DNA of 64,000 nt from NCBI GenBank assembly GCA_937864005.1, contig CALMIL010000025.1, positions 2,162 to 66,161 of the forward strand. Direction: 5' to 3'. Position 1 is the first letter of the stretch. Each line of letters opens with the position of its first letter. Positions 13,278 to 49,068 of this stretch are shown here, piece after piece. Under the pieces are notes generated by a model. It was not told the DNA's origin, ran no database searches, and saw only the letters and a list, made by a program, of their open reading frames with translations. The stretch is from an uncultured Burkholderiales bacterium. GTDB taxonomy: Bacteria > Pseudomonadota > Gammaproteobacteria > Burkholderiales > Burkholderiaceae_C. A program made the translations under genes and the position numbers.

Positions 13278-13279
13278 CC

Positions 13280-14377: not shown

Positions 14378-14393
14378 CCGATTCGGAGCTGCG

Positions 14394-16330: not shown

Positions 16331-16332
16331 CC

Positions 16333-17819: not shown

Positions 17820-17838
17820 GAGCGGACATGGAAGCAAC

Positions 17839-19422: not shown

Positions 19423-19448
19423 CAAACGGCGTGCAGCTTGATCACGGC

Positions 19449-20615: not shown

Positions 20616-20833
20616 ATCCTCGTCGGCCTCGCAAATCGGCCGCACGCAGCGGCCGCGACCGTGCGGATGTCATGCACACCCAATACTGTTGCCTCGGTTT
20701 GCGCCCGGTTGTAAGCATTTCCAATACCATTCCGCCAAGGCCGCTCGGCGCGCGCTCTTGACGCTCGCAGTCCGGGCGCTACGCCTCTTCCTGCCCCCGC
20801 TGACCACGCAAGACCATCCCCCCACTGACCACC

Positions 20834-23991: not shown

Positions 23992-23996
23992 CGGCA

Positions 23997-25073: not shown

Positions 25074-25130
25074 AGCCGCGCGGGTTGATAAAGGTCGACC
25101 AAGCAGCGCACGCCGGCGCCAGAGGCAGCC

Positions 25131-26441: not shown

Positions 26442-26538
26442 ACGCTGGGAAAGGCAAAGTGTGCCGTTCGACTGCATGAATCGTCGGCTCGATCAACAGT
26501 CGTTCGCGTAGCTCGACTTCCACGAAAACTCAAAGCGA

Positions 26539-27924: not shown

Positions 27925-27942
27925 TATTCGAACTCTCAGCGC

Positions 27943-29157: not shown

Positions 29158-29992
29158 GGGCACGAAGACATTGCGGGTGCTGGTGCTGTGCGGGCGCAGC
29201 CCGCGACATCTGTACGTCGCCAACACGCTGTGCCAGGCCGCCGAAGTGCTTGCAATCGTGCAGGAATCAGGTTCGGAGTTCTCGTGGAAGAAGCTCGCCC
29301 GGACCCTGCGCCCCGACAACTTCTCACGCAAGGCCTGGCGCTGGCTGCGCGACCGGCGCCGCTATACCGGCAACCGCGAGGAGCGGTTCTTCTTTGGCGA
29401 ACGCCGTGCACAACTCGACCACCCCGGCCTGGTGAGGGAAGTGCCGCACATCAACCACCCGGACGTGGTGGCCTTGGCACGCGAGCTCGAGCCCGACGTC
29501 ATCGCCGTCTTCGGCACGTCGCTGATCCGCGGTGACCTGCTGGGAATGGGCCGGCTCGGCATGGCCAACCTGCATGGCGGGCTTTCGCCGCAATACCGCG
29601 GTGCAGACTGTACCTTCTGGGCGCTCTACAACGGCGAGCCGCAAAGCATCGGCTGCACGCTGCACTGGATCGACGCCGGCATCGACACCGGCGGACTGAT
29701 CGCCCATGTCAGCCCGAAGATCCTGCCCGACGACGACGAACTGAGCCTCTTCTGGCGCAGTGTGCAGACCAGCGCCGGCGTCTACGCCGAGCTGTTGCGG
29801 CGACTGGCGGCCGGCGAGCGCTTCGGTCAGACCCAGCCCGGCAAGGGCCGGCTGTATCAGGTGAAGCAGCGTGGATTGCGCGAGGAGCAGGTCGTTGCGC
29901 GACGGTTGCAGGAAGGCCTGCTGCAGGGCCTGGATCTCGACGCGCGAGTCAACTGGTACCCGTCGTCGCCGGCGTCCTCGGCGCCGGCTTGA
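29150..29992 (+). CDS. Formyltransferase-family protein (Fmt/PurN-like N-terminal domain)
   Basis: DVIAVFGTSLIRGDLL..., NLHGGLSPQYRGADCTFWAL, HWIDAGIDTGGLIA: the Asn/His/Asp formyl-transfer motif context. Confidence 0.75.
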   Translation: MAEGTKTLRVLVLCGRSPRHLYVANTLCQAAEVLAIVQESGSEFSWKKLARTLRPDNFSRKAWRWLRDRRRYTGNREERFFFGERRAQLDHPGLVREVPHINHPDVVALARELEPDVIAVFGTSLIRGDLLGMGRLGMANLHGGLSPQYRGADCTFWALYNGEPQSIGCTLHWIDAGIDTGGLIAHVSPKILPDDDELSLFWRSVQTSAGVYAELLRRLAAGERFGQTQPGKGRLYQVKQRGLREEQVVARRLQEGLLQGLDLDARVNWYPSSPASSAPA

Positions 29993-30003
29993 GGCCCCCT
30001 CGG

Positions 30004-31242
30004 ATGTGGAGCGCTGCCCCCTACGCCTGGTGGTTGCTGCCGGCCTGGGTGCTGGGCAATGCCCTCTTGCTCACCGTCTATCGCCGTGACCTGCTTCGCC
30101 TCTGGCGCGAGCCGGTGTTCCGGCACCCGGTCCTGATCATCGAGAGCGACGATTGGGGTGCGGGCCCGCTGTCTCAAGCCTCGGCGCTGCGAGACATCGC
30201 AAACGTCCTGGCGCGTCATCGGGACGCGGCGGGGCGTGCACCCGTATTGAACCTTGCGCTGGTGCTGGCCGTGCCGGACGGACCGGCCATCCAGGCCGGT
30301 GCGGGCTACCACCGAGTCTGCCTGGACGCCCCCGTATTCAGCGCTGTCATGGCAGCCCTGAAGGACGGGCAGGCGAGCGGCGTGTTCGCCTTGCAGTTGC
30401 ACGGTCTCGAGCACTATTGGCCTGCTGCCCTGATGGCCAGCAACGACGCCGATGTGCACGCGTGGCTGCGCCAGCCCGTACCCGCCACGACCGAGCATCT
30501 GCCTTCACCGTTGCAAAGCCGGTGGATCGACGCGGCCAGCTTGCCCTCCAATCCGCACACCTCGGCAGCCATCTGCGCGGCCGTGGCGGAAGAGGTGCAA
30601 GCCTACACGCGGGTCTTCGGCGCCCCGCCCAAGGTCGTCGTGCCGCCCACTTTCGTCTGGACCCGTGAAGTGGAGTCGGCTTGGGCAGCGCAGGGGATCG
30701 AGTGCATCGTGACGCCCGGCTGGCGCTACACCGGCCGCAACGCCCACGGCATGCCGGACGGCGACGAAGGCCCGATCGTCAATGGGGATCGGTCAGGCAA
30801 CGTCACCTACCTGGCGCGCACGGACTACTTCGAACCCCGGCGGGGCCGCGACGCCGCCTACGCCTTGCGCGCTCTGGCTCGAGCCGTGGTTGAAGGCCGG
30901 GTCTGCCTGCTCGAAAACCACCGCGACAATTTCATTGCCGAGCCCGAACAACATCGGCAAAGCCTGGCCGAACTGGACAAGCTCTATCGCGAAGCGTTGA
31001 CGCGACATGCCGATCTGCGCTTCCTCTCGTCTTCGGAGTTGGGTACCGTGCTGCGTACCCGCGATCCGCAGTGGCTTGTTCTCGCAACCCGCGAGCGCCT
31101 GCCGTTCATCTGGCAGCGGTTGCATCGTGCGGGTCGCTTGTGGAAGCTCATGTCGCTGACGGGCTTGGCAGCCTTGGGCGCGATGATCGTGTGGGCGTTC
31201 GGCGCCGGGTCAGCCGAGAGGGCACGCCGCCACCGTTCATGA
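30004..31242 (+). CDS. Hypothetical protein (possible deacetylase/glycoside-hydrolase-like barrel), with an N-terminal TM helix and a hydrophobic segment near the C-terminus
   Basis: MWSAAPYAWWLLPAWVLGNALLL (TM), then PVLIIESDDWGAG, LQLHGLEHYW, LLENHRDNF, and the hydrophobic segment LMSLTGLAALGAMIVWAF near the C-terminus. The function is not recognisable with confidence. The alternative TTG start at 29989 overlaps the upstream stop. Confidence 0.45.
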   Translation: MWSAAPYAWWLLPAWVLGNALLLTVYRRDLLRLWREPVFRHPVLIIESDDWGAGPLSQASALRDIANVLARHRDAAGRAPVLNLALVLAVPDGPAIQAGAGYHRVCLDAPVFSAVMAALKDGQASGVFALQLHGLEHYWPAALMASNDADVHAWLRQPVPATTEHLPSPLQSRWIDAASLPSNPHTSAAICAAVAEEVQAYTRVFGAPPKVVVPPTFVWTREVESAWAAQGIECIVTPGWRYTGRNAHGMPDGDEGPIVNGDRSGNVTYLARTDYFEPRRGRDAAYALRALARAVVEGRVCLLENHRDNFIAEPEQHRQSLAELDKLYREALTRHADLRFLSSSELGTVLRTRDPQWLVLATRERLPFIWQRLHRAGRLWKLMSLTGLAALGAMIVWAFGAGSAERARRHRS

Positions 31243-33570
31243 GGTGATCACCCGCCTGATGAGCGCGACCCTGCGCTGCGGCGTGAACCCGTCGAGGATG
31301 CGTTGGCGACCGGCCTCACCCAGACGCTTCGACTCCTGCGCATCCAGCAGCAGTCGCGCAATGCCTGCTTCCACCGCCTCGACCTTGTCGCCGTCGACAC
31401 GCAGGCCATTGAGCCCATCTTCCACCGCGGACCCGGTGCCGCCTGTGCACCCGGCGATGGCGGGCTTGGCGCAGGCGTTCGCCTCCAGGTAGACGATGCC
31501 AAAACCCTCGGTATCACCCTCGATGTCGCGGTTCGGCATCGCAAACAGGTCGCACGCGCTGTACCAGCGCGGCAGGTCTGCAGGCTCGACATGGCCCAGC
31601 AGGTGCAGACGATCGCTCACGCCGAGTTTGCTGGCGATCTCTGTCAGATAGTCCCAGTCGTCCCCGATGCCGGCGATCGCGTAGTGCACATCGATGCCGC
31701 GCGCCACCAGCCCTGGCAGCGAACGGACCACGTTGTCGAAGCCCTTGCGGCGCTGCAACCGGCCGACCGACAGCACCAGGCGCTGCGCTGGCGCAAGACC
31801 GATGGACGCGCGAAGGTCTTCAAACGGCAGGCCGGGATGAAAGCGGTCCGCATCGACAGTCGGGTAGGCGATCACGATCTGCTCGCGGCGCACGCCGATG
31901 AGCGAGATCAGCGTGTCCAGCGTGAAGTCGCTGTTCGCCAGGACCTTGTCGGCACGGCGCAAGGCGAAGCACATGGTCTTGAACTTCCAGCCCCTTCCCC
32001 AACCCGTGAGCTCCTCGCCGTGCGCATAAATCACGACCTTGCACCCGCGCAAACGCCCGACGGCCCAGGCGACGAGGCCTTCAGGCAGTGCCCGGCCCGC
32101 GAGCGCAGCGACGAAACGGTTGGCAAACGACAGCCGAAGCGACTTCGCGAGCAGCCGCAGGTACATGAACAGCGACTCCGGCTTGACCCACGGGCTGCGT
32201 TCGAGCGGCAGGCGGTGAACGGTGTTGGGATGGCCAACATCGACCTCGGCATCGCCCCGCACGGCGGCGGTGACGATATGCACCGATCGTCCGCCCAGGC
32301 GCCGACAGTCGTCCTCGAACATCACTGCGGTGCCGCCTTTGGTGGGCAGGAACAACTCGGTGATCATGAGCAAGGGCAAATCTCCGGCCCGCCCGCCCGG
32401 CAGCAGTTGCCGGTACAGGGCCTCGTACTGGTCCGCGATGACGCGGATCGAATAGCGCTCCACTGCGTGGCGCCTGGTCTTGTCGCGCATGCCGGCGGCA
32501 GCAGGCGAAAGGCAGCGCTGCACCGCAGCGCCCAAGCCCGCGCTGTCATCCGGCGCGTAGGTGAAGCCGGTCTCGCCTTCGACGATCAATTCGCGGCTGC
32601 CGCTCGCCCGTGCGGCCACACAGGGCAGGCTGCAGGCCATCGCCTCCAGCACCACGTTGGGCATGCCTTCCTTGTACGACGGCAGCACCAGCAGGTCGAC
32701 GCACTGGTAGTAGGGCACCACGTCGGCGTTGAAGTCGTGCAGCACGAATTGCTGCGGGTGGGCGCGGGCCAGTTCGGCCAGGCTGGCATGCAACACGCCT
32801 TGCGGGTCATCACGGCTTTGTGGCCCGACGGCGACGAGCAGCGCGCCCGTGCCGAAAGCATCATGCGCCACCCATTGCTCAGCCAGCCACAGGATGTTCT
32901 TGCGCGCGTCGAGCACGCCCACATAGAGCACGATCGGCCGGCCGACCGGCAACCCGAGGTTGGCCCGAAGCACGGGCACGCGCTCGGCGTCCGCGCGGCG
33001 AAAGCGGGCCGTGTCCACCCCGTTGGGCACGGGGTGGATCTTCCCCGGGCTCACACCACCGGCGAGGAACTCCTCCACCAAGTCCTTGCTGATGCCCACA
33101 CAGACGTCGCTTCTGCGCAGCATGAAGCGGTGCAGCCGGCCGACGAGCGGGCGCGACAGACCCAGCAGGTCATCACGCGCAAGGCTCGCCTTGACGAGTG
33201 ACCTGAGGCCGAGCAGGCGTGCCAGCGGCCCGATGAAGGCATTGGCGAAATAGGCCCCATGGCTGTGCAGGATGTCGAAGTCGCGCCGGCGCGCCCACAC
33301 ATACCTGGCCATGTTGAACCAGAGCCGGAATTCACGGTGCTTGCGCAGGCGGCCGGGCTCCAGGCGCTGCACGGGAAAACCGTCGACCACCGCGGTCTCG
33401 CCCAGGCCCGGCCAGCGGTTGGTGATGAACTCGACATGGTGACCACGCAGCCGCAGTTCGCGCGCCAAGGTAAGGGCCTGCAACGCGGCACCGCTGTACT
33501 CGGGGGTCAGGTACGCGGTGTACATCAGCACACGCGCAGGGCGCTCGATCGGCTTGCCAGGGCTTTGCAT
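31237..33570 (-). CDS. Bifunctional glycosyltransferase with two GT4 modules
   Basis: 777 aa with two complete GT-B halves. Each has an E-x7-E type motif: KEGMPNVVLEAMACSLPCVAARASGSRELI and TEGFGIVYLEANACAKPAIAGCTGGTGSAV. Confidence 0.8.
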   Translation of the reverse strand: MQSPGKPIERPARVLMYTAYLTPEYSGAALQALTLARELRLRGHHVEFITNRWPGLGETAVVDGFPVQRLEPGRLRKHREFRLWFNMARYVWARRRDFDILHSHGAYFANAFIGPLARLLGLRSLVKASLARDDLLGLSRPLVGRLHRFMLRRSDVCVGISKDLVEEFLAGGVSPGKIHPVPNGVDTARFRRADAERVPVLRANLGLPVGRPIVLYVGVLDARKNILWLAEQWVAHDAFGTGALLVAVGPQSRDDPQGVLHASLAELARAHPQQFVLHDFNADVVPYYQCVDLLVLPSYKEGMPNVVLEAMACSLPCVAARASGSRELIVEGETGFTYAPDDSAGLGAAVQRCLSPAAAGMRDKTRRHAVERYSIRVIADQYEALYRQLLPGGRAGDLPLLMITELFLPTKGGTAVMFEDDCRRLGGRSVHIVTAAVRGDAEVDVGHPNTVHRLPLERSPWVKPESLFMYLRLLAKSLRLSFANRFVAALAGRALPEGLVAWAVGRLRGCKVVIYAHGEELTGWGRGWKFKTMCFALRRADKVLANSDFTLDTLISLIGVRREQIVIAYPTVDADRFHPGLPFEDLRASIGLAPAQRLVLSVGRLQRRKGFDNVVRSLPGLVARGIDVHYAIAGIGDDWDYLTEIASKLGVSDRLHLLGHVEPADLPRWYSACDLFAMPNRDIEGDTEGFGIVYLEANACAKPAIAGCTGGTGSAVEDGLNGLRVDGDKVEAVEAGIARLLLDAQESKRLGEAGRQRILDGFTPQRRVALIRRVITS

Positions 33571-33585: not shown

Positions 33586-35331
33586 TCAGGTCAGTTCATC
33601 GTGTTTTTCGAGCCAGGCCCCCAGCACCACCAGCGCCCAAACGCGAAACATCAGCCGCCGGTCACCCGCCATGTACTGCCGCCCGTAGCGCCGAACCACA
33701 TCGGCGCGCAGCAACTGCGTATCGAGCCAGCGGCCATGGTTCACATAGCGCTGCACGAGTGCGAAGTCGTCACCCGCCAGGAACTCGTGCAGCGGGAAGT
33801 CGAAACCGTGCTTGGGCACGTCCCAGATCTCCCGCGGGACGTAGCGTGCCAGAAGCGCGCGCAGGATTCGCTTGGGTTGGCCGGGCAAGTAGCGCCAGTC
33901 AGTGCGAAGTTGCCGGATGAAGGCGTCGGTATCACGCTCGCTGAACGGGCAGCGCACTCTCACGCCGCTGATGAGCGCGGCTTGCGTCAAGCGCTCGATG
34001 GGCATCGCGTTCAGCAACGCGCTGTAGCGCTCGTAGTGCGCGTGGCGCGGAAAGCGCGCGAAGGTCCGGTAGAACTGCGTGTGCCCGAAAGACACCGGCT
34101 CGCCGCAGAGCTCCTCGATTTCCGTGCGGGTGAACCCTTTCCAGCGGATCATGGTGTCGGCCGGGTGCTCGAAGTCGAGGATGGGCGTGTAGCCGGCAAG
34201 ACCGGGCACTGCCGACATGGCGCGTACGAGTGCGCGCCGCAGCCCGGCAGGCAGCAGGCTCGCGTAGCCGACGGCCAGGCGCACGTGACGTGGTGGCATG
34301 GCCCCGACTGCTTCATCGGCGCCCGTACCGTCGAGCACGCCGTCGAAATGCTCCCGACAGTGGTCGAAGGCGAGCACCGTCGCCATCGTGGCCGGGTCTG
34401 CCATCGGTTGGTCCATCCGGCCGCTCAATCGCTCGAACGCGCTCAGGTAGTCCTGGCGGCCGAAGCGAAGCACCTGGTGCGCCGCCCCAATGCTCGCAGC
34501 GACCTTCTGCGCAATCGGCGCCTCATCGAATCGCGCGCCGTCGAAGCCGACCGTCAACATCGTCAGGTCGGGCCGCTGACGTGCAGCCATCGCACAGATC
34601 AACGACGAGTCAATCCCGCCGCTAAGGAATGCCGCAGGTCGCGCCACATCCCGCAACTGCATCGCGACGGCCCTCGAGAGCTCGAGGTCGAGTCGACTCA
34701 CGGCTTCGGCGAAATCGGGCGGCTCGGGCTCACCCGTCGCAGAAGGCGGCACAAGCCACTTGGCGATTGCGCGCGGCGAGCAATGCACGACCTGCCCGGG
34801 TTCGACGGCATGCGCATCACCACGCATCGTGTTGGGCGCGGAAATATCCAGGAAGCGCAAGTATTCGTGGAGCGACTGGCGGGCCCACCTGGGGCGATCG
34901 GCGCCATCGCTCGGCAGTTGCGCCAATTCGGTCGCGAACGCCACGCGGCCACCGGGCAGCCCGGCGTAGAAGAGTCCCTGCAAGCCAGAGGGGTCGCGAT
35001 AGAGAAAGAGTTCGTTTGCGTTACGGACCGTGAGCGCAAAGCCCCCATTCAGCTTGGCGAACGAGTCGATCGACCAGCGTTGCCATGCTGCCAGCAGCAC
35101 CGCCTGGAGCGATTCGTCTGGCCGCAGACCCAATTCGCTCCTCAACTCGTCCGCATTGGAAACTTCACCCCGGAGCAGAACCTGCGCGTCAGCGGACGTG
35201 CAAACAGTGCATGCGACCGGTGTCACAAGCGGATCGGCGTGTAGGGGCACCTCTGGCGCGTGCAATGCGTAGAGCTTTTCAGGATGGTTACATCCGCAGA
35301 AGTCGCTGCAATCTCCAGTGCAAGCCAGCAC
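33586..35331 (-). CDS. Asparagine-synthase-family protein lacking the N-terminal Cys nucleophile
   Basis: PP-loop AFLSGGIDSSLICAMA, and C-terminal KHGFDFPL ... WALVVLGAWLE. The N-terminus (MLACTGDCSDF...) has no MCG start and the glutaminase region is short. The exact start is uncertain because the first 44 nt overlap the upstream methyltransferase ORF. Confidence 0.7.
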   Translation of the reverse strand: MLACTGDCSDFCGCNHPEKLYALHAPEVPLHADPLVTPVACTVCTSADAQVLLRGEVSNADELRSELGLRPDESLQAVLLAAWQRWSIDSFAKLNGGFALTVRNANELFLYRDPSGLQGLFYAGLPGGRVAFATELAQLPSDGADRPRWARQSLHEYLRFLDISAPNTMRGDAHAVEPGQVVHCSPRAIAKWLVPPSATGEPEPPDFAEAVSRLDLELSRAVAMQLRDVARPAAFLSGGIDSSLICAMAARQRPDLTMLTVGFDGARFDEAPIAQKVAASIGAAHQVLRFGRQDYLSAFERLSGRMDQPMADPATMATVLAFDHCREHFDGVLDGTGADEAVGAMPPRHVRLAVGYASLLPAGLRRALVRAMSAVPGLAGYTPILDFEHPADTMIRWKGFTRTEIEELCGEPVSFGHTQFYRTFARFPRHAHYERYSALLNAMPIERLTQAALISGVRVRCPFSERDTDAFIRQLRTDWRYLPGQPKRILRALLARYVPREIWDVPKHGFDFPLHEFLAGDDFALVQRYVNHGRWLDTQLLRADVVRRYGRQYMAGDRRLMFRVWALVVLGAWLEKHDELT

Positions 35332-36681: not shown

Positions 36682-37590
36682 CTACTCGAGCGCCCGATTG
36701 AGGAGGATATCTCTGAGCAGGCCCAACCCGAGCCTGCCCTGACCCACCGGCGAGAGGGTCAGCATGTTCGCCACCTCCCCAATGGCAGCCCAGCGCTGGC
36801 CTTCGCGGTAGCGCCACTTGGCGAAGTCACTATGCACGGCGGCCATGCACTTTCGCCAGTACGCGCCCTGCATTCCCTCAGGCAGCAGATGTCGGTTTTT
36901 ACTCATCACCTGCGCGCTGGCACGCTTCATGACTTCCAGATTGCGGCTCAGGCTCCCCGGGCGCTTAAGAATCACGACCAAGGACTCGTCGATACATTCA
37001 TAACCCGCAACGGCGGCCAACCGCATCCACATGTCGACGTCTTCCAAGGCGCGAAGAGACTCATCGAAGACGCCGACCAAATCGAATAACCGCCGTCGCA
37101 CCATCACTGCCGACGCACTACCGGCCACATCGCCGTTCGCGCCGAAGAGGTGGTGCAGGAGCGGCCCGGTGCATGCCGTGCATGCCCACAGGTTGAGCAG
37201 ATGTCCTTCGGTGTCTTCCACCCTTGCCGCAGCGGAAACGAAACCCACATCCGGTCTCGCACGCAGCAAGGCAACCTGGCGCGAAATCTTGGCGGGCAAC
37301 CACCAGTCATCGGCATCGAGAAACGCGACGAACTCGCCACGCGACTCGCGAATGCCCGAGTTGCGTGCGTTCGACAGTCCGCCGTTGAGTTGGGGGACCA
37401 CGCGAATGGCATTGCCATAAAGAGCCAGGACAGCAGCCGTGTCGTCGGTGCTGCCGTCATCTACCACCAGCAGCTCGAAGTCCCGAAAGTCCTGAGCCAG
37501 GACGCTGTCGATCGCCTTGCGCACACACCACGCCGCGTTGAAAGCGGGAATGACCACGCTGACCGCGGGCGCCTCAATCTTGGGTGTCAT
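36682..37590 (-). CDS. GT2-family glycosyltransferase
   Basis: VSVVIPAFNAAWCVRKAIDSVLAQDFRDFELLVVDDGSTDDT and the DxD motif AFLDADDWW. Confidence 0.85.
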   Translation of the reverse strand: MTPKIEAPAVSVVIPAFNAAWCVRKAIDSVLAQDFRDFELLVVDDGSTDDTAAVLALYGNAIRVVPQLNGGLSNARNSGIRESRGEFVAFLDADDWWLPAKISRQVALLRARPDVGFVSAAARVEDTEGHLLNLWACTACTGPLLHHLFGANGDVAGSASAVMVRRRLFDLVGVFDESLRALEDVDMWMRLAAVAGYECIDESLVVILKRPGSLSRNLEVMKRASAQVMSKNRHLLPEGMQGAYWRKCMAAVHSDFAKWRYREGQRWAAIGEVANMLTLSPVGQGRLGLGLLRDILLNRALE

Positions 37591-38542
37591 AGCCCATCTC
37601 GCGCATCAACGGCGCAATCATTGGCAGGACTCGCTCGACGGCCTGCGGGTTGTGTTCCTTCCACTTCTGCTTCTTGGGCGTGCCGCTCACCACGCTCGTG
37701 GGCTGCAGGTTCGCGCAGCGCGCCTGCAGGTCGGTCGTGAAAGGAACACGCAGTTGTGCAAAGACCGCGCGGAACATTTCCACCGGCCGTTCGAAGATGT
37801 CCTCGTAACGCAAGTGCACCCACTGTGCCGCCGGGATGGCCTTCTTCGCCTCCAAGGCCATCCGGTTGGCGCTGATCCACTGAAAGGCGCAAACCTCCTC
37901 CAGGCTGGCGTGGTTGTACTGGCGCCAGCCCGGCGCGAGGAAGAAGGACCATTCCTTGAACTCGCCGTTGTTGATCGCCACCGGCTCGGGAAAGAGCCCG
38001 AAGAACTGGGACAGCTCGAAGCGGCCATCGCTGCGCCCCACGCGCCAGCCGTCCATCATCGAGCTGATGTTGTCGCGGCCGTCGCGCTGGATGAAGACGA
38101 ACCTGGCCTGCGGAAAGAGCCGGTGCAGGTACGGAATGCGCATCACGTTGATGCAGGTCTTGTCCAGTACCCAACCGGCACCCAGGCGCTGGTAGAAATA
38201 CCGCAGCGCAGCGGTGCGGTGCTCGGGCGCCGCGGCGTCGGCGCCCGCCGCTTCCGAATGCCAGCCATTGTTCAGCGGCCCGTGCAGGCTGTTCCAGAAC
38301 TGCGGAATCTCCCAGCCGAAGCTCAGGAAGGACGAGGAGGCAGCAAGCGTCTCGTAGGTGACGGTGGTCCCCGAGCGCGAGCAGCCAACGACGAAAACCG
38401 GATCGGGCACGCGCGGACGGGTGAGGTCCCACCGCAGGCCACGAACTGCCCAGTTCAGCGCGCGCAGATTCTTCGCTCGAATCTCGCGGTCGAGCAGCTT
38501 GTGCAGGTTGCGCAACTGCGGCATTGGCGAGACTACCGACAC
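37574..38542 (-). CDS. PAPS-dependent sulfotransferase-family protein
   Basis: 5'-phosphosulfate-binding loop VFVVGCSRSGTTVTYE and 3'-phosphate-binding region RFVFIQRDGRDNISS. An alternative ATG at 38524 (MPQLRNL...) would remove the 10-nt overlap with the upstream GT2. Confidence 0.85.
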   Translation of the reverse strand: MSVVSPMPQLRNLHKLLDREIRAKNLRALNWAVRGLRWDLTRPRVPDPVFVVGCSRSGTTVTYETLAASSSFLSFGWEIPQFWNSLHGPLNNGWHSEAAGADAAAPEHRTAALRYFYQRLGAGWVLDKTCINVMRIPYLHRLFPQARFVFIQRDGRDNISSMMDGWRVGRSDGRFELSQFFGLFPEPVAINNGEFKEWSFFLAPGWRQYNHASLEEVCAFQWISANRMALEAKKAIPAAQWVHLRYEDIFERPVEMFRAVFAQLRVPFTTDLQARCANLQPTSVVSGTPKKQKWKEHNPQAVERVLPMIAPLMREMGYDTQD

Positions 38543-39504
38543 GCAGGCTTGGAGCCCGGTTCCTGCAGCACACTTCTGCGCAACTGCCAGTGGCCGGCGA
38601 ATTCACCCAAGGTGGCTGCCGCGCGCACCAGATAGAAGCGCCGACGCGACTTGCCAATGGCCGTGCAAGCCTTGATGCCGTACCCCGCGATCTTGCGATA
38701 CAGATATCGCGGCACACAACTGCCGGCATTGTGCGGTTCGAACCGTACCGTCGAGGCCGTGCGCTTGTAGGCCTTCTTCATCAGGTAGCCCAGCGTCAGA
38801 CGGCTGGCGTCCACGTAGTGGTACTGCACCATGTCGGGCACATAGCGCAGGTGCGCGCCCAGGCGCAGCGCGCGCAGCACCCAGTCCAAATCCTCGGCAC
38901 CGCCCAGGTCGTGGCCGGTGGGCCCCATGTCGGTAGCGAACGGACCAATCTTCGCGGACCACCCGGTACGCACAAACAGGTTGCCACCACCCGGCACGGC
39001 CACGTCCGGCGTCAACTCGCGGGCAATGCTGCCCTGGTCGAAGCGCGGAACCGGAAGTGGGTAAATGCGGTAGGGCCCGGTGTCATGCACCCAGGCAGGC
39101 TCGCTGCCGTCCCAGTCAGGCAGGATGCGGCCGCAAAACAGGTCGGCCTCGGGGTAGGACGCGGCAGCGCGGCACACGGCTTGGATATAGTCGGCGTCCA
39201 CGCGATGGTCGTCGTCGACGAAGGCCACGATGTCACTGTCAACGCGCGGCAACGCGGTATTCAGCGCGTTCGACTTCCCTGGCGCCGGCTCGGCGAGCCA
39301 GGCCAGCGGCAGATCGCCCCGCATGGCGAAATGATCCCGATACTCGTCCAGCAACGCATGGGTGTTGTCGCCGCAGGCATTGGCCGCGACCAGGATGTCC
39401 ACCTCCCAGTCCGGCGGGCGCGTGGCCGCGTTCAGCGAGGCCAGGGCCTTCGCGAGCAGGTCGCCGCGGTTGTGAGTGCAAATCAGGACGGTGAGCCGCG
39501 GCAT
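38533..39504 (-). CDS. GT2-family glycosyltransferase
   Basis: MPRLTVLICTHNRGDLLAKALASL and DIVAFVDDDHRV (DxD). Confidence 0.8.
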   Translation of the reverse strand: MPRLTVLICTHNRGDLLAKALASLNAATRPPDWEVDILVAANACGDNTHALLDEYRDHFAMRGDLPLAWLAEPAPGKSNALNTALPRVDSDIVAFVDDDHRVDADYIQAVCRAAASYPEADLFCGRILPDWDGSEPAWVHDTGPYRIYPLPVPRFDQGSIARELTPDVAVPGGGNLFVRTGWSAKIGPFATDMGPTGHDLGGAEDLDWVLRALRLGAHLRYVPDMVQYHYVDASRLTLGYLMKKAYKRTASTVRFEPHNAGSCVPRYLYRKIAGYGIKACTAIGKSRRRFYLVRAAATLGEFAGHWQLRRSVLQEPGSKPACR

Positions 39505-39505
39505 G

Positions 39506-40429
39506 TCACTCCGCCCCGGGCACTGGCCCGAAGGCCCACCCGCGAATCTGCCCCAAAAAATATGAAACGTTCATCTCCTTGCGCACGGTGGCGTCGCGCC
39601 CTTCCTGCCTGCGCTGGGCTCGCACCGCCGCCATGGCGCGCAGAAGCTGGCCGAACAGATAGCGCGGAGGAATCCGCGACCCGGTACCCCGCTTGCGTAT
39701 GGCCTCCATGCGCCCCATCCGATAGTGCAGGTCGAAGAAGTAGCTGCGCTCCAGCTTGGATGTCTGAATGCGGTGGTGGATCACCGCCTCGGGTGTCCAC
39801 CAGACCTTGAAGCCTGCGTCGAGCAGGCGGCGGTAGAAGTCGACCTCCTCCCCGCCAGTGTTGTCGGCGCCTTTGCGGCCAAGCATCGAGTCGAAACCGC
39901 CGACGCGTTCGCACACCAGCCGCCGGAAGCCGAAGTTGCCGCCGTAGAACGGCGTGTCGGGGCCCGTCAGCGGCGCGATGTGGTCATACCGGTTCAGCTC
40001 GCCGAGGAAGCCAAGCAGTTCATCACGCAGCCAGGGCGGCCGGGCATCTTCGAACAGCACGATCTGCCTGCCGCCGAAGGCGTCAGGGTCATGAACGTCA
40101 ATCAGGCGTTCGTAGGCGCACAGCCAATCGGGGTCGGCCGTTTCGTCGTCGTCCAAGAAGATCACGTAGTCGCCTCGCGCGTCGGCAATCGCGCGGTTTC
40201 GGGCATTGGACAGGCCCAGCCTTTCCTCGCGGACCACCCGCACCTGCCAGCCGGACGGCCAGGCGTGGCGGGCCAGCAGTTCCGGCGTGCCGTCGCGGCA
40301 GCCGTTGTCGACGATCAGGAACTCCCAGGGCTGTCGCGGTGGATTCAACCGCGCCAAGTCCACCAATGTGCGCGCCAGGCGGTCGGCGTGGTTGTGCGTG
40401 CAAAGCGCGACGGTGTAGCTGACGCTCAT
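39506..40429 (-). CDS. GT2-family glycosyltransferase
   Basis: YTVALCTHNHADRLARTLVDL and DYVIFLDDDETA (DxD). Its stop lies 1 nt from the next start. Confidence 0.8.
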   Translation of the reverse strand: MSVSYTVALCTHNHADRLARTLVDLARLNPPRQPWEFLIVDNGCRDGTPELLARHAWPSGWQVRVVREERLGLSNARNRAIADARGDYVIFLDDDETADPDWLCAYERLIDVHDPDAFGGRQIVLFEDARPPWLRDELLGFLGELNRYDHIAPLTGPDTPFYGGNFGFRRLVCERVGGFDSMLGRKGADNTGGEEVDFYRRLLDAGFKVWWTPEAVIHHRIQTSKLERSYFFDLHYRMGRMEAIRKRGTGSRIPPRYLFGQLLRAMAAVRAQRRQEGRDATVRKEMNVSYFLGQIRGWAFGPVPGAE

Positions 40430-41280
40430 GCGTGCGCACCGGCCAGGCGGGTCTTCAAGCGACCTGCGTAGTAAGCCGCGGCATGCGCGAGGCTGCCATC
40501 GTTGCTGCCCAGGTGGGTCTTGCGCAGCAGCATCGCCGGCGTGTCGGTGCCGTAGACGTCGATACGACGAATGCGCAGAGGGTTCACGTCACGGCGGTTG
40601 AAGCCCGACTGCGTGGAGAACGCCGCGCGGTAGCCGGCAGCATGCGTTGCCGCCTCGACGCGTTCGTCCAGATGCCCGAACGGGTATGCAAGGTACGGCA
40701 CGTCGTGCCCCAGCAGTTGCGACAACTGCGCCCGCGAGCCGGCCAGTTGATCGGCCAATGCCGCATCGTCCAGCGCCGGCAGGCTGGCATGACTGCGGGT
40801 ATGGGAATGGAAGCTCACGCCGCGCCGCTGCATGTCCAGAATCTCGTCGGCATCGAGTAGCGGATAGGTCACGCCGGCGGGGTTCTGGGCTCGCGTCCAG
40901 GCGTCATCCTGGCCGATGAGGTCGCTGACCAGGAACACCGTGAACGGCCAGCCCAGTTGTTCGAGCACCGGCAGCGCGTGGTCGCGCACACCGCGGAACC
41001 CGTCGTCGAAGGTGATCAGGAAAGCGCCCGCGGGCAGCGCCGAGCCCCCTTCGAGCCACGCCACGAGGGCATCGATCGGGAATGCCCTGAAGCCCTTGCG
41101 CTGCAGCGCCTGCATGTGTGCGGCAAACGCTTTGGGCGAGATCGCGTATCGGGCCTCCCACTTGTTGCGGGCCTCGCCTACGCGGTGATACATCAGCACG
41201 GGCACCCGCGCGGCAGCGTTGTTCTGCGTGCCGTCGCGGTGCGCGGGGAGGAGCGCGGTTTGGGGCATGGGGCGGCTCAA
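40426..41280 (-). CDS. Polysaccharide deacetylase (NodB-homology domain)
   Basis: VPVLMYHRVG, FLITFDDGFRGV, SFHSHTRSH. Confidence 0.85.
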   Translation of the reverse strand: MSRPMPQTALLPAHRDGTQNNAAARVPVLMYHRVGEARNKWEARYAISPKAFAAHMQALQRKGFRAFPIDALVAWLEGGSALPAGAFLITFDDGFRGVRDHALPVLEQLGWPFTVFLVSDLIGQDDAWTRAQNPAGVTYPLLDADEILDMQRRGVSFHSHTRSHASLPALDDAALADQLAGSRAQLSQLLGHDVPYLAYPFGHLDERVEAATHAAGYRAAFSTQSGFNRRDVNPLRIRRIDVYGTDTPAMLLRKTHLGSNDGSLAHAAAYYAGRLKTRLAGAHA

Positions 41281-42251
41281 ATCGCCTGCAGATGCGGGCG
41301 CAGTCGTTCATCGAGGATGTCCAAGGCACGCGCATCGACGCGGCTGTCCAGCTTCAGGGCAAACGGCGCCGTACTCTGCACAACCTCCGGAATCTCGTCG
41401 GCGGTGATGACTGCACAGCTTGCGGCGTGCTGTACGTTGCGGGGCCATCGGATGAAACGCTGCACGTCGTTGGCGATGCTCAGGTGCGCGGCGCTGGCGA
41501 GGACTGAGGAGAAGAAGGTTTCGTCGGGGACAAGACTGCTTCGCATATAGGCCGTCCAACCCGGGTTCTCGTCGACGAAGCGGAGCAGGAAACGTAGGGC
41601 TCTTGTGTCGAGATTCACGAACTGACGCCCGCCCTGCAGCCTGAATCGATCGCCATACGGGAGCCATAGGCGACGGACTCCCAATTTCGTTGGTAGCCCG
41701 CGAGGATGCGCAATGATGCGAATCAGCGGTTGATGCGCATTCACCCAAACCCGGCAGCGCTGCAGGCCATGACGCAGCGAGGCAGGCACGCGGTGCCAGT
41801 ATCTGAACTTCGGCAACCTGAAGTAGCGGAAGTGGAAGCGGGTTTCGGCGGTGCCTGGGGGCCAGTGGTCGGGGTCGTACGCGTCGAAGTGGTAGACAAA
41901 ACCGTCGTTGCCGCTGGTGGACAGCATCGTCTCGAAGCCGCTCAACGGATGGATCGGGTAGGTCAAACCGGTCAGCGTGACCACCCAGTCGAATTCCAGA
42001 TGGTGAATGCTCCAACGGAAGGCATGCAGGTACTGCTCCACTAGCGAGAAGCCACCCCACTCGCCTCGGATCGGTTCGGGTACCAGGTGCACACGCCAGT
42101 CGTCACGCAACAGGTTCTTGTCGAACCGGGCAAGCTGGGGGTCGTGGTGGATCGCGATCTCGGCACCCGGGCTGAGCCGACGGATGATCGCCGCCAGGCG
42201 CGCCACCTGCGGTTGGTGGTCGTGCGAAAAGATGAGATACAGAACCTTCAT
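41277..42251 (-). CDS. GT14 (core-2/I-branching enzyme)-like glycosyltransferase
   Basis: MKVLYLIFSHDHQPQVARLAAIIRRL...IAIHHD and IRGEWGGFSLVEQYLHAFRWSI...DWVVTLTGLTYPI match the Branch-family pattern as I recall it. Confidence 0.65.
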   Translation of the reverse strand: MKVLYLIFSHDHQPQVARLAAIIRRLSPGAEIAIHHDPQLARFDKNLLRDDWRVHLVPEPIRGEWGGFSLVEQYLHAFRWSIHHLEFDWVVTLTGLTYPIHPLSGFETMLSTSGNDGFVYHFDAYDPDHWPPGTAETRFHFRYFRLPKFRYWHRVPASLRHGLQRCRVWVNAHQPLIRIIAHPRGLPTKLGVRRLWLPYGDRFRLQGGRQFVNLDTRALRFLLRFVDENPGWTAYMRSSLVPDETFFSSVLASAAHLSIANDVQRFIRWPRNVQHAASCAVITADEIPEVVQSTAPFALKLDSRVDARALDILDERLRPHLQAI

Positions 42252-43240
42252 CAGTGGGGCGTATCGGTCACGCTCGACTCGTTGCTGTCGCGCAGCGCGA
42301 TCAACCGGGCGTACAAGGAACTGGGCAGGCAGGCGGATGCCACATGCGGGATATCACGCCACTTGAAGCTGCGAGCGCGCGCGACATGCCGGAAAAGATG
42401 CTGCGACGACGTGAGATCGCGCTTCCAGACGGCGCGGTAGGCCTGGCGCAGCACCTGACCCTCGGTCAGATCCTGCAGCCGCTCGCGCGACAGGTGGGCG
42501 ACGAGGTCGGGATGGTCGCGGATGAACCCGCGCTGGGCATCGAGCGCGTCAAGCACCTGGCGCCACCTGACCGCCGAGACCTGCCCTTCCCCGTGCCAGC
42601 GGTAGTAGGCGAGTACCTCGGGCACACGCACCATGCGGCGCGTGACGGCCAGCGCACGCAGCCAGAAGTCGTAGTCCATCGACGCGAAGCAGCGCTCGGA
42701 AAAGCCACCCAGGCGATCGACCACGCTGCGCCGCACGAGCGCGGCATGGATCGGCCACGGGCAACTGCGCAGAAAGTGCGCAACCGGGTCATCTGCTTCG
42801 TAGGCGGGCGGCACATAGGGCGCCGAGCGGATGCCCTGGCCGACGTTCTGCCAGCCACAGTAGGCGATGTCGGCCTGCGCTGCGGCAATGGCGGCGTACA
42901 ACTCTTGAAGCGCAGTCGCGTCCCACCAGTCATCAGCATCCAGAAATGCAACCAACTCACCGCGTACCAGGCGCAGCGCCTGATTGCGCGCAGGGTATGG
43001 GCCGATCCGGTTGCAGTGCGCGAGTACCAGGCGGCCCGGGTGATCCGCAGACAACCGGGCGGCAACATCCGCCGAGCCGTCCGTGGATCCGTCATCCACG
43101 AGCACGACCTCGACATTGCCGTAGGTCTGGTTGAGAGCAGAGCCGACCGCGTCTGCCAGATAGGGCGCCGCGTTGTAGCAGGGCATGACCACCGAGACGA
43201 GCGGCCGGTTGTCGTGCGCTGCATCCAACCCTGGGTTCAC
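42251..43240 (-). CDS. GT2-family glycosyltransferase
   Basis: LVSVVMPCYNAAPYLADAVGSALNQTYGNVEVVLVDDGSTDGS and AFLDADDWW. I chose the GTG at 43240 because it overlaps the upstream stop (GTGA). The track ORF extends 27 codons further into the upstream gene. Confidence 0.85.
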   Translation of the reverse strand: MNPGLDAAHDNRPLVSVVMPCYNAAPYLADAVGSALNQTYGNVEVVLVDDGSTDGSADVAARLSADHPGRLVLAHCNRIGPYPARNQALRLVRGELVAFLDADDWWDATALQELYAAIAAAQADIAYCGWQNVGQGIRSAPYVPPAYEADDPVAHFLRSCPWPIHAALVRRSVVDRLGGFSERCFASMDYDFWLRALAVTRRMVRVPEVLAYYRWHGEGQVSAVRWRQVLDALDAQRGFIRDHPDLVAHLSRERLQDLTEGQVLRQAYRAVWKRDLTSSQHLFRHVARARSFKWRDIPHVASACLPSSLYARLIALRDSNESSVTDTPH

Positions 43241-44313
43241 GGCTGCAACTCCTCGCGGATCACCTCCAGCCACGCCCTGCCCCACTTCTGGTCTGGCTCG
43301 ACGTGGTTGCCTTCCGCCCATTCGTTCCAGGCCTTGAGAAAGACGATCCGATCTTCCACCGGGTGATCGGCGACGCGGGCAATCGCCGCGCTCAACAGGC
43401 CGCGGAACTTCTCGGGCGTGGCGTCATGAAAGACCAAACCGCGCATGCCGCTGCGCGGTGTGTTGTCCCAGTTGGGCAACACAAGAGGATAGTCACGCCA
43501 TTGCGGCCGGTTCGAACGAAGGAGGATGGGCAGTATTTCCTCATAGTCCCAGATGGTCAGTTCGTGCTTGTTGCCCTGCAGGGCCAGCTTCAACTTGGTC
43601 GACAGATACCGTCGAGGAATTCGTCCATCGCGCTTCGGCAGCGCCTGCATGGTGGAGGCGTCCAGACCACGAACCCGGGGATCCCACGTCTCGTTGCGGT
43701 CGCAGACACCGATGAGGTGCAGACCAGGCAACCCGGCCTTCAGGGCGCGCTCGCGCCAGAAGTCGGTGACCTTGCGCACGTCAGGTATGTGGTCCGGCTT
43801 GTAGATGACGAAGATCGGCTTGTCGTCCACCTTCATGTAACGCCTGTCCGTGAAGGCTTGCAGCAGCCAGTCGAAGTGGGCAGCATGATCGTCCCAGCCT
43901 GGATAGACCTGCTCGATCAGCATGTTGTTGGTGCCTTGCCATACGGTATTCCAGCTGTGATTGGCCCAGCACAGGCAGAACGGAAAATCGGGCTCCGACG
44001 AGAGCAGTATCTCGTCGACCGGCCGCTCCAGAATGCGCCGGCCGCCGAACCAGTAGTGGTAATAGCAGAATCCACCAATGCCGTATTCCTGCGCCAGTTC
44101 CGCCTGGGCTTTGCGCGCCTCGGGCAGACGCAGGTCGTAAAAGCCCAGGTCAGCCGGTACATGGGGCTGGTAGTGCCCCGGAAATAGCGGTTTGGCCTTG
44201 GCGACGTTCGTCCATTCGGTGAAGCCCTTGCCCCACCACACATCGTTTTCAAGGGTAGGGTGGAACTGCGGCAGATGGAAAGCGATCAGGCGTGCACGTT
44301 GGGTCATGGTCAA
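43237..44313 (-). CDS. WbsX-like glycosyltransferase / GH99-like domain protein
   Basis: ARLIAFHLPQFHPTLENDVWWGKGFTEWTNVAKAKPLFPGHYQPHVPADLGFYDLRLPE is the characteristic N-terminal signature of this family. Confidence 0.75.
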   Translation of the reverse strand: MTMTQRARLIAFHLPQFHPTLENDVWWGKGFTEWTNVAKAKPLFPGHYQPHVPADLGFYDLRLPEARKAQAELAQEYGIGGFCYYHYWFGGRRILERPVDEILLSSEPDFPFCLCWANHSWNTVWQGTNNMLIEQVYPGWDDHAAHFDWLLQAFTDRRYMKVDDKPIFVIYKPDHIPDVRKVTDFWRERALKAGLPGLHLIGVCDRNETWDPRVRGLDASTMQALPKRDGRIPRRYLSTKLKLALQGNKHELTIWDYEEILPILLRSNRPQWRDYPLVLPNWDNTPRSGMRGLVFHDATPEKFRGLLSAAIARVADHPVEDRIVFLKAWNEWAEGNHVEPDQKWGRAWLEVIREELQP

Positions 44314-44329: not shown

Positions 44330-45430
44330 TCAGCGAGCGAGCAAGCGGTTCAAATGCCAGCGGGCCGGTAGTTCGATCCGGCGATAGGTGAAGTATGAAA
44401 GTGCGAAGGTCAGCGCTACCAACAAGAACACCTTGAGCGCATAGACCTTGATGGGACTGTAGGAGCCCGCCAAGCCGGAGAACACGTATCCACCATACAT
44501 CCAGTAGAGCCTGTAGAAAATCCAGTGAGTCATGTAGAGCGAGTACGAGAGCGTGCCCAACAACAGCAAAGGCGGTGACATCAGGACGCGCGCCACGGGT
44601 CCTCGGTCATCGGCCGTCGACAGAATCAATAGTGCCAAGGCGAAAAGTATTACCGCCTGACTCCAGCCGAGGTGCAGCGCTGCAATCGCGACGGCCATCG
44701 CGGCGACCTGCAGCAAGGTAGCAACCGATGCCACCCGCGCGCGTCGCTGGCGCCAAAGGCGATGCAGCAGCATGCCTGCGATGAAGCCCGCCATGCATCG
44801 GGCGAGAGGCTGCTGGTCGCCAATGTCGCTGAAGTTCGCAAACGTGTGCACGTAAATCGTCATGGCCGCGATGGGCAGTAGCGCACGCACTGCCCATCTG
44901 CCGTGGTCAGAGAGCAGCAGCAACAGCGGAAAGGCAAGGTATGCGAACGCTTCCGTGCTGATTGACCAGGACGGCACGTTCCATTCGAGGCGATCCATCG
45001 TCAACCAGGCATGGGTCAGCGTCAGATGCTGAAGAATCGATCCCCAACTCTTGCGATCGCTGGCAAAGGCGTCGGCGATCTCGGGGCGCAGCACATAGGC
45101 CGAAAGTTCCACCGCGATCATTGCCAGCAGGGTGGCAAAGTGCAGCGGGTAGATTCGCGCGAAGCGCGCGAGATAGAAGCGCCGCGTGGCATGCACCTTC
45201 ACCCCCTTGGCCGACATGGCTGCGCCATACACATGCGACAGGATGAAACCACTGAGTATGAAGAAAAAGTCCACCCAGATGCGCCCGTCGGAGAAGAACA
45301 CCGTGTGCGAATCGATCGCTTGGCCCACCGACGGCGTGACGTCCCGAAAGTGGTACAGCAGTACCAAGACTGCCGCGACACCGCGCAGGGCATGGTGCGA
45401 CCTGATCACGTCGGCACCGGGCGAATTCAT
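44330..45430 (-). CDS. Acyltransferase family 3 membrane protein (probable O-acetyltransferase)
   Basis: LRGVAAVLVLLYHF, IWVDFFFILSGFILSHVY and about 10 TM helices. Confidence 0.85.
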   Translation of the reverse strand: MNSPGADVIRSHHALRGVAAVLVLLYHFRDVTPSVGQAIDSHTVFFSDGRIWVDFFFILSGFILSHVYGAAMSAKGVKVHATRRFYLARFARIYPLHFATLLAMIAVELSAYVLRPEIADAFASDRKSWGSILQHLTLTHAWLTMDRLEWNVPSWSISTEAFAYLAFPLLLLLSDHGRWAVRALLPIAAMTIYVHTFANFSDIGDQQPLARCMAGFIAGMLLHRLWRQRRARVASVATLLQVAAMAVAIAALHLGWSQAVILFALALLILSTADDRGPVARVLMSPPLLLLGTLSYSLYMTHWIFYRLYWMYGGYVFSGLAGSYSPIKVYALKVFLLVALTFALSYFTYRRIELPARWHLNRLLAR

Positions 45431-48989: not shown

Positions 48990-49068
48990 TGCGTGGGGGG
49001 CAGTCTCTTGAGATTTCTGCGAAAGGCCACTCGGGCACAGGGTTTCGTCAAGTCCGGGCCGGCTCGCT

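Follow-up and report, generated by a model that had tools for sequence, protein, structure and literature searches.

Sulfotransferases in bacterial polysaccharide clusters

The synechan (xss) cluster of Synechocystis PCC 6803 is one of the described systems closest, by gene setting, to the one considered here: its sulfotransferases XssA and XssE are encoded among many glycosyltransferases in a Wzx/Wzy-type exopolysaccharide (EPS) cluster, sulfation of the polymer has been proven chemically and is proposed to take place on the lipid-linked unit in the cytoplasm before flipping, and the product drives cell aggregation in blooms (PMC8205485). The same study, published in 2021, stated that other bacterial EPS clusters had yielded no sulfotransferase genes (PMC8205485). 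Among Proteobacteria, marine Vibrio sp. KMM 8419 and Cobetia also encode putative carbohydrate sulfotransferases, inside clusters for sulfated capsular polysaccharides (PMC11641403, PMC11766843). Here we examine a predicted sulfotransferase gene, ST, in 64,000 nucleotides (nt) of DNA from an uncultured Burkholderiales bacterium (contig CALMIL010000025.1; the whole stretch is referred to as the window). Judged from sequence comparison, ST is the centre of a conserved three-gene module with two family-2 glycosyltransferases (GT2c and GT2d), set in a Wzx-dependent accessory operon of an XrtA (exosortase A)/PEP-CTERM EPS locus.

ST shares its setting with the synechan enzymes; we propose the same place of sulfation and liken the polymer to synechan, with flocs in place of blooms. 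The two systems differ in that the synechan cluster is cyanobacterial, lies on a megaplasmid and is controlled by XssQ/R/S, whereas the window holds a proteobacterial, chromosomal XrtA/PEP-CTERM locus with PrsR, and in that sulfation in the window is predicted from genes. With the tyrosine sulfotransferases TPST1/2 (PDB 3AP1, 5WRI) and the bacterial RaxST, ST has in common the RSGTT 5'-phosphosulfate-binding motif, the glutamate base, the lysine and the RDGR...S 3'-phosphate-binding motif. With NodH/NodB/NodC and the heparan-sulfate N-deacetylase/N-sulfotransferase (NDST), which act on one hexosamine-containing glycan, the operon shares the combination of a GT2, an N-deacetylase and a sulfotransferase. 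Full-text literature searches returned no paper tying a sulfotransferase to PEP-CTERM or exosortase systems; they gave one incidental mention and the synechan paper, the main text of which does not contain 'exosortase' (PMC8205485).

The sulfotransferase and its glycosyltransferase partners

The open reading frame (ORF) named in the original prediction – 322 amino acids (aa) on the minus strand with a GTG start – is present as described, as are the two signatures for binding of 3'-phosphoadenosine 5'-phosphosulfate (PAPS) that had been read in it, GCSRSGTT at residues 53-60 and RFVFIQRDGRDNISS at residues 147-161 of the 322-aa translation. The Pfam assignment then suggested as a check gave Sulfotransfer_3 (PF13469) at E 4.8e-25, a match well outside chance (89.5 bits; cut-off 27); Sulfotransfer_1 and Sulfotransfer_4 matched weakly, below threshold. 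Since the homologs, all 314-320 aa long, begin at the position of an internal methionine, we take ATG 38524, giving 316 aa, as the probable true start; residue numbers below are counted from it. The GC content at third codon positions (GC3) is 0.85, typical of coding sequence, in a window of 65% GC, and an identical protein is found on 11 contigs from several samples, including the metagenome-assembled genome (MAG) GCA_035324965.1, so that ST is not an assembly artefact. Among the NCBIfam models none matches ST at E <= 1e-3: it is an accessory gene and not a member of any curated XrtA-system family. A hydropathy scan, a simple method and not a dedicated predictor of membrane segments or signal peptides, showed neither a transmembrane segment nor a signal-like N-terminus in ST; in the AlphaFold2 model and the ortholog alignment its first 35 residues are a basic helix conserved within the family.

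That model, built from a 60-sequence alignment, has a predicted local distance difference test score of 92.5 and a predicted template-modelling (TM) score of 0.90. Its top 50 Foldseek matches in the PDB are all sulfotransferases, at probability 1.0, TM 0.36-0.58 and identities of 10-20%, in the order mycobacterial Stf9, tick and human TPSTs, the sulfotransferase domain of CurM, Stf1, and then heparan-sulfate 3-O-sulfotransferases and cytosolic SULTs. All are remote, and Foldseek therefore cannot assign the acceptor; the TPST matches themselves (E about 1e-8, TM 0.53-0.58, identity 17-20%) reflect similarity at superfamily level only. The family profile matches TPST1 at E 3.5e-25 and the CurM domain at 6.5e-24, a single-sequence phmmer search with ST reaches TPST1/TPST2 at E 1.3e-5, and a conserved C-terminal KW...GY segment is common to ST and TPST1/2. 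Alignment sets the TPST segments 'PRSGTT', 'CGEET', 'NKDP' and 'RDGRASVHS' against the RSGTT loop of ST, a glutamate 22 residues on, the lysine of 'DKT' and the arginine and serine of 'RDGRDNISS'. Across the 60 sequences, which include close and distant relatives, R50, S51, G52, R147 and S155 are invariant or at least 90% conserved, and the catalytic base E72 and the transition-state lysine K122 are conserved to at least 90%. The TPST2 counterparts of R50/E72/K122/R147/S155 we take to be R78/E99/K158/R183/S191. Because these residues align with those of the TPSTs and are conserved, ST looks catalytically competent, with a TPST-like catalytic set; hidden Markov model match, motifs and predicted fold mark it as a bona fide member of the PAPS-dependent sulfotransferase superfamily.

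A search over 5.8 billion proteins gave 796 matches to ST at E < 1e-5, of which the best 120 are all 74-100% identical to it; the named sources include Azonexus, Thiocystis violascens, Rubrivivax gelatinosus S1, Anderseniella and Burkholderiales MAGs. At the level of 50% clusters there is one full-length representative, at 72% identity, and the next full-length relatives stand at no more than 40%. Among GTDB species representatives the gene occurs in at least 80 species, with identities of 63-88% in 77 of 80 and 53-56% in the three most distant loci. The carriers, several of them cultured strains, span Beta-, Gamma- and Alphaproteobacteria (one alphaproteobacterium in the GTDB set) and comprise Burkholderiales (Rubrivivax, Aquabacterium, Azohydromonas), Rhodocyclales (Thauera, Aromatoleum, Methyloversatilis), Thiobacillus/Hydrogenophilales, Gallionellaceae, Chromatiales, Competibacteraceae, Sedimenticola, Halioglobus and Lysobacteraceae. 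Invariant positions make up 43% among 20 orthologs from three classes, and across 81 loci the median identity of ST is 70%, against 55-58% for its glycosyltransferase neighbours. That orthologs of different classes are still 74-81% identical speaks for strong constraint together with horizontal spread of the cassette. By these measures ST is a tight, widely distributed ortholog group, set off from its next relatives.

A central feature of this group is the company that it keeps. That ST stands between GT2 genes, as originally claimed, is borne out by Pfam on both sides. The ATG of GT2d lies inside the last codons of ST, an overlap of 17 nt that is read in three genera (the window, Thiocystis and Thauera); 8 nt separate the end of GT2c from ATG 38524, whereas with the GTG start GT2c and ST would overlap by 10 nt, and the spacing between GT2b and GT2c is 1 nt. 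A GT2d ortholog directly follows ST in 67 of the 74 loci with room for it. In 59 of 80 loci a GT2c ortholog (at least 50% identity) is encoded on the strand of ST and no more than 3 kb away, either just upstream of ST, as in the window, or just behind GT2d, the arrangement of Thauera and Aromatoleum. The gammaproteobacterium Thiocystis violascens has the cassette in synteny, with identities of 86% for WbsX, 78% for ST, 68% for GT2b, 66% for the deacetylase, 65% each for GT2a and GT2d and 41% for GT2c. Where at least 5 kb are available on both sides of ST, a deacetylase homolog is found within 10 kb in 43 of 52 loci; XrtA-associated genes occur within 10 kb in 37 of 81, many of the others being limited by short contigs.

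The nearest outgroup (P0127) is a single protein of 617 aa, encoded on a metagenomic contig of 46% GC, in which a GT2c-like N-terminal half (38% identity over 307 aa) is joined to an ST-like C-terminal half (38% over 297 aa) in the order of the window genes. This natural fusion is independent evidence that the activities of GT2c and ST act together. With the ST-GT2 pair spread across at least 80 species, and with a natural GT2::ST fusion, the coupling of ST to glycosyltransferases is much stronger than the original prediction could see. The 46% GC contig with the 617-aa fusion (L089, 468-6382) has a second, separate Sulfotransfer_3 gene 3 kb upstream, which suggests that its organism, an unrelated one, makes a doubly sulfated glycan.

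The cassette is also part of published flocculation and biofilm clusters. Strain MZ1T of Thauera aminoaromatica has, in ACR01846.1, a protein identical to the ST of strain S2 (locus L054), and the gene order at L054 – Wzx, a 661-aa protein, WbsX, AsnB, GT2, deacetylase, GT2, ST, GT2 and a GT2::PF00884 fusion – is exactly that of the published MZ1T map, tmz1t_3244-3253, where ST is tmz1t_3251, a 'hypothetical protein' (PMC4784049). The same cassette, in the same order, forms part of the psc1 biofilm cluster of Rubrivivax gelatinosus S1 (PMC3684757). The MZ1T ortholog and that of R. gelatinosus, RGS1_10426, are 67-68% and 76% identical to the ST of the window; both papers list the gene as a hypothetical or unknown-function protein, and it was never mutated (PMC4784049, PMC3684757). 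Two genes from ST, in the deacetylase gene tmz1t_3249, a nonsense mutation abolished flocculation and changed the extracted EPS, and was complemented (PMC4784049). From its position, and from identities of 57-60% in other Thauera loci, we infer that the window deacetylase is the ortholog of tmz1t_3249. The MZ1T EPS contains rhamnose and galacturonic acid as well as N-acetylglucosamine and N-acetylfucosamine, with 'possible nonsugar substitutes esterified' (PMC4784049), and by analogy a window polymer with amino sugars and uronic acid is plausible.

The Thauera arrangement differs from that of the window: GT2c follows GT2d and has a PF00884 sulfatase-like domain fused to it. In T. aminoaromatica the fusion is 1065 aa long (L054, about 5400-8593; L088, 11846-15043), comes directly behind ST-GT2d and consists of GT2c, a membrane region and a C-terminal PF00884 'Sulfatase' domain of the alkaline-phosphatase superfamily, which explains why tmz1t_3253 appears in print as 'sulfatase (wbbL)'; the protein may work as a phospho-substituent transferase or as a genuine sulfatase on the same glycan. 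That the 'Sulfatase (wbbL)' of two published gene tables is a mislabelled ST was considered and rejected: gene order and Pfam assign the label to the GT2c::PF00884 fusion, and ST is the neighbouring 'hypothetical' gene.

In Thiocystis violascens (L001, 428-2759) the cassette is preceded by GHMP kinase, SIS and nucleotidyltransferase genes of the heptose-nucleotide pathway type and followed by a pyruvyl transferase gene, and the Rubrivivax psc1 table also lists GDP-heptose genes (PMC3684757). The polymer backbone therefore probably differs between hosts, with the GT2c-ST-GT2d core kept. NCBI already labels the orthologs 'sulfotransferase family protein', so that the annotation as such was known; the novelty lies in the tight and widespread ortholog group, its fixed partnership with two GT2s, natural fusion included, and its setting in XrtA-associated flocculation clusters, in which it had passed for 'hypothetical'.

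Proposed acceptor, sulfate donor and place of sulfation

We consider it probable that ST is a soluble, cytoplasmic, PAPS-dependent enzyme that sulfates a sugar of the lipid-linked EPS repeat unit in coordination with GT2c and GT2d; the acceptor, the timing, the cytoplasmic site and the sulfate of the polymer are what we infer. The repeat unit would be assembled on undecaprenyl diphosphate at the inner membrane face, and ST would move sulfate from PAPS onto a lipid-linked sugar – probably the one that GT2c attaches – before GT2d extends the chain or at about that time. Wzx would then flip the unit, and polymerisation would be followed by export through the polysaccharide co-polymerase (PCP) and outer-membrane polysaccharide export (OPX) machinery of the XrtA locus. 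Sulfation of the undecaprenyl-diphosphate-linked unit at the cytoplasmic face is suggested by the Wzx flippase in the operon, the cytoplasmic location of PAPS and the soluble nature of ST. The outcome would be an acidic, sulfated heteropolysaccharide adding to the cohesion of flocs and biofilms.

Several observations weigh against this reading. The solved proteins closest in sequence are TPSTs, the CurM sulfotransferase and mycobacterial Stf enzymes, not carbohydrate sulfotransferases; since the nearest characterised relatives are protein- or polyketide-directed, similarity gives a sugar acceptor no support, and identities of 13-20% with a TM of about 0.55 are too low for an acceptor site to be inferred. 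None of the ST carriers is reported to have sulfate in its EPS, the published analyses of MZ1T listing sugars and N-acetyl only, by methods described without a sulfate assay. Scans for sigma-70 promoters and terminators in 31.1-51 kb, and for sigma-54 -24/-12 elements, gave results at chance level, so that co-transcription of the operon is deduced solely from the overlap and packing of its genes. Lastly, a tblastn search with an APS-kinase probe (APS, adenosine 5'-phosphosulfate) and a six-frame search for P-loop and CysN motifs found no APS kinase, ATP sulfurylase or CysN-like sequence in the window or in 85 related loci, and linkage of PAPS genes (cysDNC) has been proposed as a hallmark of sulfated-polysaccharide clusters (PMC11641403).

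The first of these points raises the question of whether ST might sulfate protein. An enzyme of the TPST/RaxST kind would act on tyrosine in a secreted protein, perhaps one of the PEP-CTERM proteins that XrtA sorts, and by the phmmer and profile searches above TPST1/TPST2 are the closest solved proteins, with a catalytic constellation equal residue for residue. RaxST, moreover, is likewise cytoplasmic, and distant relatives of ST are fused to tetratricopeptide-repeat or Asp/Asn-hydroxylase domains, suggesting protein-directed chemistry in parts of the superfamily. The low identity and TM to the TPSTs speak against such a role, as does the gene context: no RaxA/RaxB-like exporter gene is adjacent, no PEP-CTERM or small-peptide gene that could supply a substrate was seen in the window (a scan for PEP-CTERM-tailed ORFs gave two chance matches, in non-coding frames only), glycosyltransferases are neighbours in nearly all loci and the nearest outgroup is a GT2::ST fusion. 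Unlike TPST and RaxST, then, ST has GT2 genes as its partners, no gene for a peptide substrate or its exporter and no membrane anchor, and fails by context as a tyrosine sulfotransferase. We regard protein sulfation as very unlikely.

The lack of PAPS genes in the window and the 85 loci neither supports nor refutes a supply of PAPS. Clusters of Vibrio and Cobetia combine ABC-transporter (kps) export with second copies of cysDNC (PMC11641403, PMC11766843), whereas the cassette of the window has Wzx and no linked PAPS genes. The synechan cluster is not described as carrying PAPS-synthesis genes (PMC8205485), and cysDNC linkage is therefore not a universal criterion. It might still be argued that ST, though conserved, is no working PAPS-dependent enzyme in this host, either for want of PAPS or because it plays a structural or scaffolding part for its GT2 partners, but we find this barely credible. 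Many Betaproteobacteria do assimilate sulfate via APS reductase, with no need of PAPS, linkage of PAPS genes is missing in 85 loci, and sulfate is not reported from Thauera EPS. The PAPS-binding and catalytic residues, however, are all conserved, and the share of invariant positions among the 20 orthologs indicates purifying selection on an enzyme. An APS kinase characterised from Thiobacillus denitrificans is named in the title of reference 51 of PMC11641403, and loci of this genus carry ST (L025, L030, L049). A literature search on Thauera and cysC returned nothing relevant.

A sugar acceptor need not belong to the exported EPS. ST could act on another glycoconjugate – a lipopolysaccharide (LPS) or O-antigen-like glycan, a glycolipid, or a short chito-oligosaccharide-like signal made in the style of NodC/NodB/NodH – and there is some reason to think so: the GT2s, the cytoplasmic NodB-type deacetylase and ST together resemble the logic of Nod factors, mycobacterial sulfolipid/glycolipid families include the structural neighbours Stf9 and Stf1, and the WbsX and RgpF-type annotations are LPS-like (PMC3684757). 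We nevertheless think it unlikely, given that the operon has its own Wzx and stands in or beside XrtA EPS loci, that the Thauera deacetylase mutation alters extracted EPS and abolishes flocculation (PMC4784049), and that the cassette, unlike the Nod system, has no linked nodA- or nodPQ-like genes.

Within the preferred reading, sulfation of the EPS repeat unit, a bolder proposal can be made, which we offer as doubtful. The deacetylase and ST would together be a split bacterial NDST, a hexosamine of the lipid-linked unit first losing its N-acetyl group and then receiving sulfate on nitrogen; the sulfated polymer of amino sugars and uronic acid would be presented on PEP-CTERM proteins, or along with them, as a proteoglycan-like matrix, and this route would be the genetic source of the mainly N-sulfated, glycosaminoglycan-like material of granular sludge. 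Both proteins are predicted to be cytoplasmic by hydropathy and are encoded by separate genes, whereas NDST is a single bifunctional Golgi protein; NDST1 (8ccy) is a remote Foldseek match of ST, at rank 29. Sulfated glycosaminoglycan-like polymers have been found chemically in the EPS of aerobic and anaerobic granular sludge, with a mainly N-sulfated signal (PMC10483923), which would fit de-N-acetylation followed by N-sulfation.

The original prediction of a sulfated, uronic-acid-containing EPS thus stands in part. Sulfotransferase class, intact catalytic set, coupling to glycosyltransferases and the XrtA locus are all upheld; PAPS genes are not linked, and the nearest solved relatives are TPSTs. 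The label 'glycosaminoglycan-like' is a prediction.

The wider locus and the biology of floc-forming bacteria

The ST operon runs on the minus strand from 50775 to 31237 (19.5 kb), is of Wzx type and converges on the plus-strand XrtA block (Table 1). Its order is AsnB-like, Wzx, 698-aa protein, Acyl_transf_3, WbsX, GT2a, Branch-like, deacetylase, GT2b, GT2c, ST and GT2d, followed by a low-GC stretch (a small ORF and a methyltransferase), a second AsnB-like gene and the double GT4. It holds at least six glycosyltransferase genes besides Wzx; PCP, OPX and tyrosine-kinase genes lie at 8.4-11.6 kb.

The claim of an XrtA locus is sound: exosortase A and the XrtA-system marker families lie above their cut-offs, and the locus is a complete one of XrtA/PEP-CTERM EPS type. 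Its core genes encode the priming transferase (TIGR03013), PrsR, OPX, the PCP/chain-length determinant, the tyrosine autokinase, the TIGR03016 outer-membrane protein, the TIGR03015 ATPase, stp2, stp3, the TIGR03108 amidotransferase and a TIGR03097 O-ligase-like protein. Models above curated cut-off in the window are TIGR03109, TIGR03088, TIGR03108, TIGR04063, TIGR03097, TIGR03013, TIGR02915, TIGR03027, TIGR03007, TIGR03018, TIGR03016 and TIGR03015. The neighbours named at the outset (ugd, an epimerase-like short-chain dehydrogenase/reductase (SDR), deacetylases, an O-acetyltransferase of the Acyl_transf_3 family and a methyltransferase) are all in the window, but the ugd/SDR pair lies about 19 kb from ST, outside the operon. 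The pair may supply UDP-galacturonic acid, its tie to the ST operon being conjectural.

Table 1. Features of the window and their coordinates
Feature	Coordinates	Strand	Basis or remark
ST (sulfotransferase)	37574..38524 (mechanical ORF to GTG 38542)	-	Pfam, AlphaFold2, Foldseek, TPST1 profile match
GT2d, Glycos_transf_2	36682..37590	-	Pfam 1.6e-30; translationally coupled to ST by overlap
GT2c, HpsE-like family-2 glycosyltransferase	38533..39504	-	Pfam and NCBIfam; directly upstream of ST
GT2b, family-2 glycosyltransferase	39506..40429	-	NCBIfam HpsE/EpsD-like
Polysaccharide N-deacetylase (PF01522 type)	40426..41280	-	PgaB/IcaB-like matches; no signal peptide or transmembrane segment by hydropathy scan
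Branch/GT14-like protein	41277..42251	-	Pfam Branch 1.4e-6; present in 2/81 loci
GT2a, family-2 glycosyltransferase	42251..43321	-	NCBIfam matches
WbsX-family protein, most conserved cassette member	43237..44313	-	Pfam Glyco_tran_WbsX 1.2e-138
Acyl_transf_3 membrane O-acyltransferase	44330..45430	-	Pfam 3.7e-29
Conserved soluble protein, 698 aa	45427..47523	-	no Pfam/NCBIfam match
Wzx/MOP-family flippase	47526..49091	-	NCBIfam MOP flippase 7.7e-52; 11 transmembrane-like segments
AsnB-like amidotransferase, first operon gene	49069..50775	-	TIGR03108/TIGR01536 matches below cut-off
Methyltransf_23	35288-36085		Pfam
AsnB-like amidotransferase	33586..35331	-	
Double GT4 glycosyltransferase, 777 aa, last operon gene	31237..33570	-	two GT4 stretches
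Core XrtA/PEP-CTERM EPS locus	1129..31242	+ (PrsR on -)	eleven TIGRFAM XrtA-system models above cut-offs
Second deacetylase	14394-15275		
Exosortase A (XrtA-EpsI), defines locus type	17719..19422	+	TIGR03109, 338.5 bits vs cut-off 208
SDR, UDP-glucuronic acid 4-epimerase-like	56761-57885	-	PDB relatives incl. MoeE5, BcUGAepi
ugd-family (UDP-glucose/GDP-mannose dehydrogenase family)	57855-59243	+	divergent from SDR

Some neighbours of ST deserve comment in their own right. The 698-aa protein belongs to a family of about 650-700 aa that travels with the cassette (11 loci, median identity 54%); it is 41-47% identical to its counterparts in Thauera/Aromatoleum loci (L050, L052, L029), and a 661-aa gene without a Pfam match holds the same position in the T. 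aminoaromatica locus (tmz1t_3245). It is a candidate for an uncharacterised EPS-modifying function. The low-GC island (35288-36570) is made up of the Methyltransf_23 gene, with a GC3 of 0.52, and a 132-aa ORF (36172-36570) with a GC3 of 0.61 and a hydrophobic N-terminus, against 0.75-0.93 for the neighbouring genes; a methyltransferase homolog is found in one of 81 related loci, and for this reason and its low GC3 the island is probably a recent insertion. Two of the three AsnB-like proteins, those of the ST operon, align to TIGR03108 from about model position 69-96 onward, far below cut-off, and may be without the N-terminal glutamine-amidotransferase nucleophile.

In the XrtA block, PrsR (TIGR02915, 709 bits; 6570-7934) has no adjacent PrsK histidine kinase in the window, its neighbours being a trypsin-like serine protease and an export gene. 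Between the priming transferase and PrsR lies a trio (3661-6527) of an HprK-related kinase A (TIGR04352, 392 bits), an NTP_transf_5 nucleotidyltransferase and a DegP/MarP-like serine protease, orthologs from which the Rubrivivax psc1 table lists as 'Hpr(Ser) kinase/phosphatase' (PMC3684757). The region 51000-64000 reaches 72% GC and has long overlapping ORFs on both strands; the only assignable features there are a lytic transglycosylase (51000-52067, plus strand), the SDR, ugd, and weak VanZ and Wzy_C matches in a 1538-aa ORF (53294-57910, minus strand).

What ST may mean for its carriers follows from where it occurs. The highly conserved family is spread through key producers of flocs and biofilms – Thauera, Aromatoleum, Methyloversatilis, Azonexus, Rubrivivax, Thiobacillus, Competibacteraceae and Chromatiales – and sits in clusters genetically shown to control flocculation, which makes it a testable candidate in tractable cultured strains (Thauera MZ1T, R. 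gelatinosus S1). In granular sludge, queries with known sulfotransferases gave few matches, and the authors call the pathways unknown (PMC10483923). ST is, on the sequence comparisons reported here, a strong candidate for the enzyme sulfating the slime polymers that bacteria of wastewater sludge produce. If this is true, part of the charge and cohesion of sludge EPS would be explained, and the gene would provide a metagenome marker for sulfated-EPS potential and an added enzyme for making sulfated polysaccharides.

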